Shown piece after piece: positions 30,899-31,540 of a stretch of DNA of 64,000 nucleotides. Under the pieces are notes generated by a model. The model did no database searches and was not told the DNA's origin. It saw only the letters and a program-made list of their open reading frames with translations. This DNA is from Octopus vulgaris. Taxonomy: Eukaryota. A program made the translations under genes and the position numbers. How positions within the stretch are numbered: the stretch's first letter is position 1; each line of letters begins with the position of its first letter. The stretch lies in the NCBI GenBank assembly GCA_951406725.2, contig OX597814.1:67084001-67148000 (forward strand). The letters are read 5' to 3'.

Positions 30899-31540
30899 CA
30901 TATATATATATATATATATATATATATATATATATATATATATATATAATAAGTAGGTGAATGAATTATCCTAGTATGGATAATTCGGTTAATCGATACC
31001 TGGGTAGCAAATTCACGTCAGAAAACACGGCTGAAGCTACATGCCAAGGGCAGAAACCCTGTGTTCTTGTGTGGAAATTTGTGTTTTTTTTTTATATGAA
31101 TAAATGAAAGAATGGAGTCGAACGAAGATTTTAACAAAATTCCTTTACTCTCAACACATGTTTCGAAGACTGCATACTCTTAATTCCGAAGGAATAAAGG
31201 GTGCATTATGCCGTCTTCTCATCAGGAAAGACAAGGAACCTCTATCAGCCTCAAGACAAACAAAAACTTTTTGATGACTGCCTACATGGTGTCCACAGTG
31301 ATAATGAGAAGACGGCATAATGCACTCTTTATTCCTTCGGAATTAAGAGTATGCAGTCTTCGAAACATGTGTTGAAAGTAAAGGAATTTTGTTAAAATCT
31401 TCGTTCGACTCCATTCTTTCATTTATTCATATATATATATATATATATATATATATATATATATATATATATATATATATATATATATATATATATATAT
31501 ATATATATATATATATATACACACACACACACACACACAT
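30899..31540. repeat. Long (TA)n microsatellites flanking the hammerhead foldback; similar tracts occur throughout the window
   Basis: (TA)n at about 30899-30948 and 31429-31519 followed by (CA)n. Confidence 0.95.
31142..31236 (-). ncRNA. Type I hammerhead ribozyme with complete core (Penelope-like pLTR context)
   Basis: Minus strand ccttgtctttc-CUGAUGA-GAAGAC...GUCUUC-GAAAC-AUGU-GUU-gagagtaaagg; stem I pairs, stem II is a long hairpin capped by C(UUCG)G. Confidence 0.8.

Follow-up and report, generated by a model that had tools for sequence, protein, structure and literature searches.

Locus structure and the hammerhead motif

We analyzed a window of 64,000 nucleotides from Octopus vulgaris (contig OX597814.1, positions 67,084,001 to 67,148,000), which holds a foldback lying between two (TA)n microsatellites (Table 1). 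A repeat search returned two arms of 130 nt (31093-31222 and 31304-31433) with 98% complementarity and a spacing of 81 nt. The initial annotation had put the difference between the arms at about two positions, and direct base-by-base comparison found exactly 2 mismatches in 130, at 31326 (T versus C) and 31376 (A versus G), and in both cases it is the plus-strand arm that departs from the commonest sequence of the family. With so few arm differences and 97-99% identity to sister copies, the insertion is young, as had been claimed. The long copy, running from 31308 to 30950 on the minus strand, and the inverted copy overlap by the 5-nt microhomology. Segment Y is found on one side of the insertion only, as a long 'tail', and the piece has neither an ORF nor the 5' part of the element. 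Hence, it cannot move by itself.

Table 1. Features of the foldback insertion (window coordinates; strand given where a feature has one).
Feature	Position	Strand	Basis
(TA)n microsatellite, left flank of the insertion, likely target	30900..30949		sequence read
Segment Y, first ~135 nt of the element 5' UTR, downstream half of the pLTR	30950..31083	-	L151, L146o, L147o, sister loci
A-run between X and Y	31084..31092	-	junction also in sister copies
Segment X, last ~216 nt of the 3' UTR, 5'-truncated at 31308, contains the hammerhead	31093..31308	-	genome matches
Type I hammerhead motif	31140..31238	-	sequence, fold, covariance model, conservation
Unpaired part of the longer copy (foldback loop), with the 5' strand of stem I and C3-U4-G5	31223..31303	-	repeat search, sequence
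Inverted second X copy, starting at A6 of the core, with the short-form end followed by (TA)n, without A-run or Y	31304..31433	+	arm comparison
5-nt microhomology (CTCAT on the minus strand) at the junction of the 5' ends of both copies	31304..31308		long-copy homology to 31308, arm start at 31304
(TA)n microsatellite, right flank of the insertion	31434..31519		sequence read

The minus strand carries CUGAUGA at 31225-31219, a G10.1 (31218) that pairs with C11.1 (31165), GAAAC at 31164-31160 and the triplet GUU (G16.2-U16.1-U17) at 31155-31153. All bases of a type I core are present (C3, U4, G5, A6, N7, G8 and A9; G12, A13 and A14; the A15.1-U16.1 pair; and an H17 that is not G), which confirms the complete minus-strand core proposed initially. 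The plus-strand copy had been described as cut inside the core, and it indeed begins with ATGAG at 31304 and has neither C3-U4-G5 nor the 5' strand of stem I. Hence, since this copy starts at core A6, the whole motif exists on the minus strand only.

Stem I consists of 5 proximal bp (31230-31226 with 31152-31148), a 2x2 internal loop and 6 distal bp (31238-31233 with 31145-31140). Helix II occupies 54 nt (31218-31165) and is made up of 6 bp, a G-A mismatch, 5 bp, an internal loop and ~11 imperfect pairs. Helix III together with loop 3 (ACAUGUGU) lies at 31161-31154, U17 is at 31153, and the sequence predicts a cut between 31153 and 31152. For the tip of helix II, a C(UUCG)G cap had been proposed; the letters CUUCGG are there, but ViennaRNA favors a 5-bp AUUCC/GGAAU stem closed by a UUC triloop because the next pair in the C(UUCG)G register would be C-A.

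Using ViennaRNA, we found that the 126-nt RNA has an MFE of -34.0 kcal/mol (z -2.56) and beats 200 of 200 shuffles. Stems I and II appear in both the MFE and the centroid structures, around an open junction. As in type I, helix I is the open one of the three, and II and III are closed. Helix III has 2 bp in the monomer and is absent from the MFE structure; in the predicted dimer it forms between the two molecules. For two copies, the cofold has a predicted advantage of 8.8 kcal/mol over separate monomers, and its helix III regions pair with each other into a double hammerhead.

The whole foldback, folded as a minus-strand read-through transcript of both arms, gives a z of -31 and a predicted hairpin of ~135 bp (-233.9 kcal/mol), in which helix II, GAAA and the stem I 3' strand are all tied up. 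In these models, the ribozyme at the locus could fold only in a transcript that begins inside 31303-31239. The description of the locus as carrying a possibly active ribozyme is not supported, as read-through transcription would lock the ribozyme in the -234 kcal/mol hairpin.

Covariance model R1 gave the hammerhead at the locus a score of 164.5 bits. An R1 match elsewhere in the window (43304-43434; 18.4 bits, E 0.11) has no hammerhead core and was rejected. None of the Rfam hammerhead models reached its gathering score in the window, none was reported at E ≤ 10 in 30950-31500, and for all four families described below there was no report even at E ≤ 10 when L111, L063 and L151 were scanned; the likely cause is a 43-nt insertion in loop 2. 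Contigs from sequencing data (X1, X2, X7 and X12), which say nothing on RNA ends or strand, cover 31085-31308 and more often have C17 (plus-strand 31153 A to G).

The host element and its genomic copies

The near-full-length copy L151 reads, in order, (TA)n, an inverted X fragment, a direct X fragment, an A-run, Y, an ATG-initiated ORF, the 3' UTR, an A-run, Y and (TA)n. Its 3' UTR is ~700 nt long and contains X and the hammerhead, and the element unit is ~3.6 kb. Hence, from the layout of L151, the 5' UTR begins with Y, and X-A-Y is a terminal repeat (pLTR). In L146o and L147o, too, Y immediately precedes the ORF, and most sister loci have the same Y behind X. The idea that Y is an unrelated neighboring repeat was rejected since L151 shows Y to be 5' UTR.

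The ORF upstream of X is longest in L151 (2403-4817, 804 aa) and reaches 693 aa in L049 (4870-6948). Its motifs SDKTG, KDHK..RLI, FDISSFYPSI, GGLYRDD and KP..Y..S.H agree one by one with the Hydra-clade alignment that PMC8557442 gives in its supplement. Among the clade signatures, DKT in place of DKG (within SDKTG) and GLYRDD are present and RWK reads RWL; the CxCX5C linker was sought in the ORF and not found. The C-terminal block reads IY..(12)..YIG and R..H, followed by CGIC and CKH, and the CCHH cysteines are absent. The ORF also has long N-rich low-complexity inserts.

An AlphaFold model of the L151 ORF, built with 32 homologues, had a pLDDT of 73.9. Its top PDB matches in Foldseek were telomerase RTs (6zd1, 6zdq, 3du5 and others; E 3e-9 to 1e-7), a result that fits a PLE. 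In the ESM Atlas, the nearest clusters carried RVT_1, HTH_animal and GIY-YIG, with GIY-YIG in 26-38% of the members of some of them. Pfam gave no family for the ORFs or for three homologues, and a PDB sequence search returned nothing relevant with either the single protein or the 32-row profile. The best database relatives are 38-41% identical and include one from Argonauta hians, an octopod. The motifs and the modeled fold point to a PLE of the Hydra clade. The weakest link in this assignment is GIY-YIG, which rests on motifs, one weak PHROG homing endonuclease match (E = 0.02) and the Atlas leads, and the endonuclease part of the model has a pLDDT of 54-72.

We found a putative Hydra-type EN just upstream of X in all four families. 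Amino-acid identity of this EN to that of family A, the family of the window, is ~90% within A, 75-82% for B, 65-72% for D and 55-68% for C. A Neptune-like ORF between two family-B copies was considered as a second autonomous partner and rejected, as the copies belong to a duplicated block of 2.93 kb whose flanks are identical, and the Hydra-like EN of family B itself lies just upstream of its X.

The sister copies share their flanks, namely an upstream segment U leading into coding sequence and, downstream, the A-run, Y (~135 nt) and (TA)n; in longer copies, X is contiguous with the EN-coding region. When 15 oriented sister loci were compared with one long copy, they had a common 3' end near 1294 and 5' ends ranging from 226 to 908. 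Hence, the fixed 3' end and the scattered 5' ends carry the signature of target-primed reverse transcription.

For the arrangement of copies, 27 distinct loci were counted, leaving out three further locus ids that overlap others. A second copy was found within 1.5 kb in 18 of the 27 loci, and in all 18 the two copies were head to head, never in tandem or tail to tail; the remaining 9 loci held solo copies. The starts of the inverted arms vary from q7 to q170. The inverted arm usually stops where X stops, next to (TA)n, and the other copy continues through the A-run and Y, with few exceptions, including L147o. The pLTR, the inverted 5'-truncated copy, the one-sided tail, the (TA)n target and the 3' hammerhead were all found, with a tail of ~150 nt, longer than the published 30-40 nt. 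The (TA)n sequence would mask any target-site duplication.

Conservation of the hammerhead in four families

We searched the window's own 2.8-Gb genome with 31085-31310 and obtained 2208 candidates, 40 of which were scored and gave 53 matches of 95-100% identity. Three further families, all reached via diverged copies, yielded 1476 (B), 2161 (C) and 2837 (D, copies 92-95% alike) genomic candidates. The core is intact in 57 of 62 full-span copies of family A, 35 of 36 of B and 28 of 31 of C, or 120 of 129 overall. Among five lineage representatives, none of the 11 core columns varies, compared to 34 of 70 paired and 27 of 52 other columns, and compensatory double changes occur at nine pairs. 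The recurrence and the folding of the motif are far beyond chance and, judged from its sequence, the hammerhead is a conserved feature of four related families.

A first alignment, made with MAFFT, started from 161 hits, of which 129 span the motif and 73 are distinct. In it, 87.8% of the structure cells pair; sliding the 3' partners lowers this to 34.9-48.4%. Both sides changed in ten pairs, and four of five covariation measures exceeded all 500 shuffles; the number of pair types was not above the shuffles (292/500). A second alignment had 103 rows (33 A, 5 A-like, 15 B, 17 C and 33 D). It omits four A rows (three with deletions, and one from the same place as an included D row), five C rows, rows that were truncated or part of a foldback, and the two rows of C type from L111. 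Here, 85.7% of the cells were paired compared to 36-48% after sliding. Double-change cells (172 versus 82) and the covariation score (0.168 versus 0.103) exceeded all shuffles, and the number of pairs with a double change (169/500) and the number of pair types (204/500) did not.

The informative changes are swaps at the level of lineages, that is, few events each inherited by many copies rather than many independent ones. Examples are C-G to U-A at stem I 1.5/2.5 and at 3-4 places in helix II, including its distal half, which is imperfect (75-78% of cells paired). Covariation of stem II across genomic copies had been put forward as a check on the initial annotation, and compensatory changes are indeed found in the stems, as a small number of lineage-level events. 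The UUCG cap fared worse as it is not conserved; at this place A and B have UUC(G), C has AAUCC and D has UUU.

Across the families, position 17 is U, C or A, never G, and position 7 has either U or A. In B, C, D and the older A copies, loop 3 and the pairs that close it form the perfect palindrome ACAUAUGU. The subfamily of the window combines the variant loop given above, with a G in the palindrome, with U17, and its older relatives combine C17 with the perfect palindrome. U17 and the imperfect palindrome would, if anything, weaken cutting, and this subfamily is the youngest and very successful. Its success agrees with the view, as published in PMC8557442 and PMC11167929, that the hammerhead is unneeded for insertion. 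We also found that 0 of 207 copies have a 5' end at the predicted cut (+1; A 80, B 37, C 52 and D 38), a result that is weak because the sample has duplicate loci and the queries spanned the ribozyme.

Standard covariance models miss this hammerhead with its extended, co-varying helix II. Hence, genomic hammerhead censuses undercount this type. In the literature found on long or extended helix II, 'long' refers to 6 bp, and our literature search on cephalopod hammerheads found PMC8557442 as the only relevant paper.

Origin of the foldback and comparison with known systems

The locus is an ordinary kind of element, the scar of a PLE insertion, and not a new mobile ribozyme. Our reading, of high confidence, is that a Hydra-clade PLE left the foldback as a dead-end insertion with a truncated 5' end, composed of two head-to-head copies of the terminal repeat that probably arose in one event primed by both cut (TA)n strands, and that the minus-strand hammerhead is the conserved terminal-repeat ribozyme of the family, predicted to cut only as a dimer. 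The ribozyme at this locus is a passenger.

In PLEs, an inverted 5'-truncated copy beside a truncated copy is the usual by-product of insertion, tails are one-sided, and the preferred target of the Hydra clade is (TA)n, as described by Craig et al. (2021, PMC8557442). A purified PLE protein was reported to cut and extend both target strands and to start reverse transcription at two internal RNA sites (Frangieh et al. 2024, PMC11167929). Hence, the two-strand cutting and internal starts described in that report offer a mechanism for both the head-to-head copies and the two alternative termini. By analogy with the published PLE work, the endonuclease of the element would cut both target strands. 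One 3' end would then prime cDNA at the end of Y to give the long copy, the other would prime at the end of X to give the inverted copy, and the two cDNAs would be joined at the 5-nt microhomology.

In master copies with the structure pLTR-ORF-pLTR, the hammerhead would lie ~260 nt upstream of the ATG. There it would cut long or read-through transcripts, with two copies pairing via the palindromic loop 3. PLE hammerheads with a palindromic loop 3 are described as acting as dimers (Cervera and de la Pena 2014, PMC4209133), and hammerhead mutants were reported not to impair PLE insertion in vitro (PMC11167929).

The initial annotation took the recently mobilized foldback to be itself the mobile element, carrying a possibly active ribozyme. 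The 98% likeness of the arms, the complete core on one strand and the youth and abundance of the family speak for this, yet we consider it very unlikely. Long copies lead into an RT-EN ORF, and the piece at the locus has no ORF and no 5' part. The predicted read-through hairpin takes up parts of the ribozyme, and the same arm junction occurs in 0 of 26 other loci. Since arm lengths and break points differ between loci, the foldback is not a copied unit, and the claim that it moves as such is not supported.

Spread as a non-autonomous, retrozyme-type element, via small circular RNAs from two tandem hammerheads, is also highly improbable. An X-Y junction comes only from a template that is circular or of more than unit length, the palindrome in loop 3 suits dimers, and retrozymes have been proposed as derivatives of PLE pLTRs (bioRxiv 10.64898/2026.07.22.740005). 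However, in the loci examined there is no short direct tandem of hammerheads, partners being inverted; the copies are colinear with an autonomous ORF; and, in the biased sample of 207, no copy begins at the cut site.

That the two copies are independent insertions of the same family in one (TA)n tract, or a later palindromic duplication at the DNA level, is an even fainter prospect. (TA)n tracts are insertion hot spots, and L021 must represent two events because it has an A-type and a B-type copy head to head. Here, however, the 5' ends abut via the 5-nt microhomology with no (TA)n between them, and all 18 paired loci are head to head, which independent hits would not give. A DNA transposon with long TIRs, or a foldback-type MITE, inserting at TA would account for inverted terminal arms (up to 330 nt in L013, L022 and L006) with tails outward and TA-rich flanks, but is scarcely conceivable given ends that are not equivalent (one stops at X and the other goes on with A-run and Y), arms of varying length, variable 5' truncation beside a fixed 3' end, 9 of 27 loci without a partner, and an internal sequence that encodes an RT with a telomerase-like fold rather than a transposase.

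Once the foldback is recognized as a PLE insertion scar, its thousands of counterparts in the genome need not be misread as new ribozyme elements. In the two alternative 3' termini and the strictly head-to-head pairing of copies, the genome keeps a natural record of what was reported in vitro for another PLE, namely two-strand priming and internal initiation. A more speculative and rather unlikely proposal is that the 54-nt helix II is a handle on the RNA that guides the telomerase-like RT to its two internal start sites (~60 and 215 nt downstream), so that the fold would serve retrotransposition besides or instead of cutting. It is based on the compensatory changes that maintain helix II in four PLE families, between which EN identity falls to 55%. 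If true, long-helix-II PLE hammerheads invisible to Rfam could be common in invertebrate genomes.

The element resembles the Hydra-clade PLEs described in PMC8557442 in its single ORF, in its divergent RT with DKT and GLYRDD, and in a putative C-terminal GIY-YIG without CCHH and with CxxC and CxH nearby. It is also like them in its insertion in (TA)n, in carrying near its 3' end a type I hammerhead of canonical order whose helix III is palindromic, and in its inverted 5'-truncated copies, as annotated there for Penelope-13_HM. It differs in its unit size (~3.6 kb here versus <3 kb), its N-rich inserts and its very high copy number; there are at least four abundant families here, some of them young, with clear terminal repeats. 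By eye, the present protein is far from the printed sequence of Hydra-1_Obim (Octopus bimaculoides), an element for which 'no pLTR' is noted in PMC8557442, in contrast to the clear pLTR here. The canonical hammerheads of the clade have a stem II of 3-7 bp and a loop of 3-10 nt (File S2, PMC8557442), with 7 bp and an 8-nt loop in Hydra-1_Obim. The suggestion that stem II is longer than in published PLE hammerheads thus stands, with 54 nt here against at most ~24 nt in those published for the Hydra clade.

With the min-HHRs of PLEs described in PMC4209133, the hammerhead shares its type I topology, its location in terminal repeats, the G10.1-C11.1 pair, a short helix III with palindromic 15.2-16.2 and loop 3 that implies dimers, and opposite-strand pairs, noted in that study at distances of 100-700 bp. 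In contrast to those min-HHRs, it has no extra base between A9 and G10.1, its helix II is ~seven times longer than their 6-8 bp, its stem I has 5 + 6 bp with an internal loop, and the Rfam models miss it. The Poseidon PLE PAc of Anolis (PMC11167929) fits in its cutting and extension of both strands and its two internal RT starts. PAc belongs to another clade, has a tail of 30-40 bp versus ~150 bp here, and has a hammerhead that overlaps the start codon rather than lying ~260 nt upstream.

Animal non-LTR retrozymes are alike in having a hammerhead sequence related to PLE terminal repeats (bioRxiv 10.64898/2026.07.22.740005). They differ in that there are no tandem direct arrays here and the copies are truncated pieces of an autonomous element. 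An inverted-repeat outcome is common to foldback elements, MITEs and L1 twin priming, in the last of which both nicked strands serve as primers. Here, in contrast to foldback elements and MITEs, the ends are not equivalent and a transposase is absent. Compared to L1 twin priming, both arms here copy the same 3' region, and the product is a palindrome rather than an inversion.

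Surroundings of the foldback and presence of its family in relatives

On the right side of the foldback, at a distance of approximately 370 nt, we found a decayed fragment of the reverse transcriptase (RT) of another Hydra-type PLE, which contains stop codons and reads VNFLDINFNLNTSSYQPYNRPKRNITYIH... (see table). This fragment is an older insertion, separate from the foldback. (CA)n occurs in the microsatellite flanks as well, together with short AT-rich minisatellites; mir-297 and similar Rfam models gave sub-threshold matches on these flanks, which were rejected as spurious.

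Comparing sequencing runs, we found 61-67% of the sampled 31-mers of this stretch in runs X12 and X17-X20, whose labels name three other organisms (B, C and D, distinct from the PLE families so lettered). Hence, close relatives share the young family, or copies that are nearly identical to it.

Features in the window (bare coordinates) and at other loci of the genome
Feature	Position	Strand	Remark
RT fragment, other Hydra-type PLE, decayed	31799-32120	+	39% identity to residues 200-315 of the 693-aa ORF copy at L049
Microsatellite flanks	30820-30880; 31520-31620
Asparagine-rich ORF inserts	L151:3800-4700; L049:5900-6700		between RT and endonuclease
Junction of two inverted copies	L025:1715-1790
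Alternative continuation of Y	L031:1-260	-
Alternative continuation of Y	L045:3217-3585
Neptune-like ORF fragment	L077/L078 (G000:C5:120999789-121005931)		395 aa

Head-to-head junctions and a possible alternative 5' region

At the junction of two inverted copies in L025, an 18-nt unit, gcattatgccgtcttcgt, stands in approximately four successive repeats, and we found its source to be the 5' strand of helix II; here a PLE junction gave rise to a minisatellite. Near-perfect palindromes are frequent in family C (L082, L083, L088, L089 and L107), with the loop almost absent and the junction at the hammerhead core or just 5' of it. A hot spot of strand switching may lie at this place in family C.

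Beyond the internal (TA)n of Y, the repeated start of the 5' UTR, L031 and L045 have approximately 220 nt in common, unlike the continuation into 5' UTR and ORF seen in the near-full-length copy L151. This stretch may be the 5' region of another related family.

ORF inserts and a second PLE clade

The RT and the endonuclease are separated in the ORF by long low-complexity inserts rich in asparagine, which have a pLDDT below 50 in the structural model (residues 485-553 and 625-754). Because of such inserts, the Argonauta relative was automatically named 'GATA zinc finger domain-containing protein 14-like'.

Within a duplicated block of 2.93 kb, two family-B copies flank an ORF fragment of a canonical Neptune-like PLE that carries FLDD and a linker of the form CX4CxxC and has both cysteines in its GIY-YIG domain. 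Hence, at least two PLE clades exist side by side in this genome.
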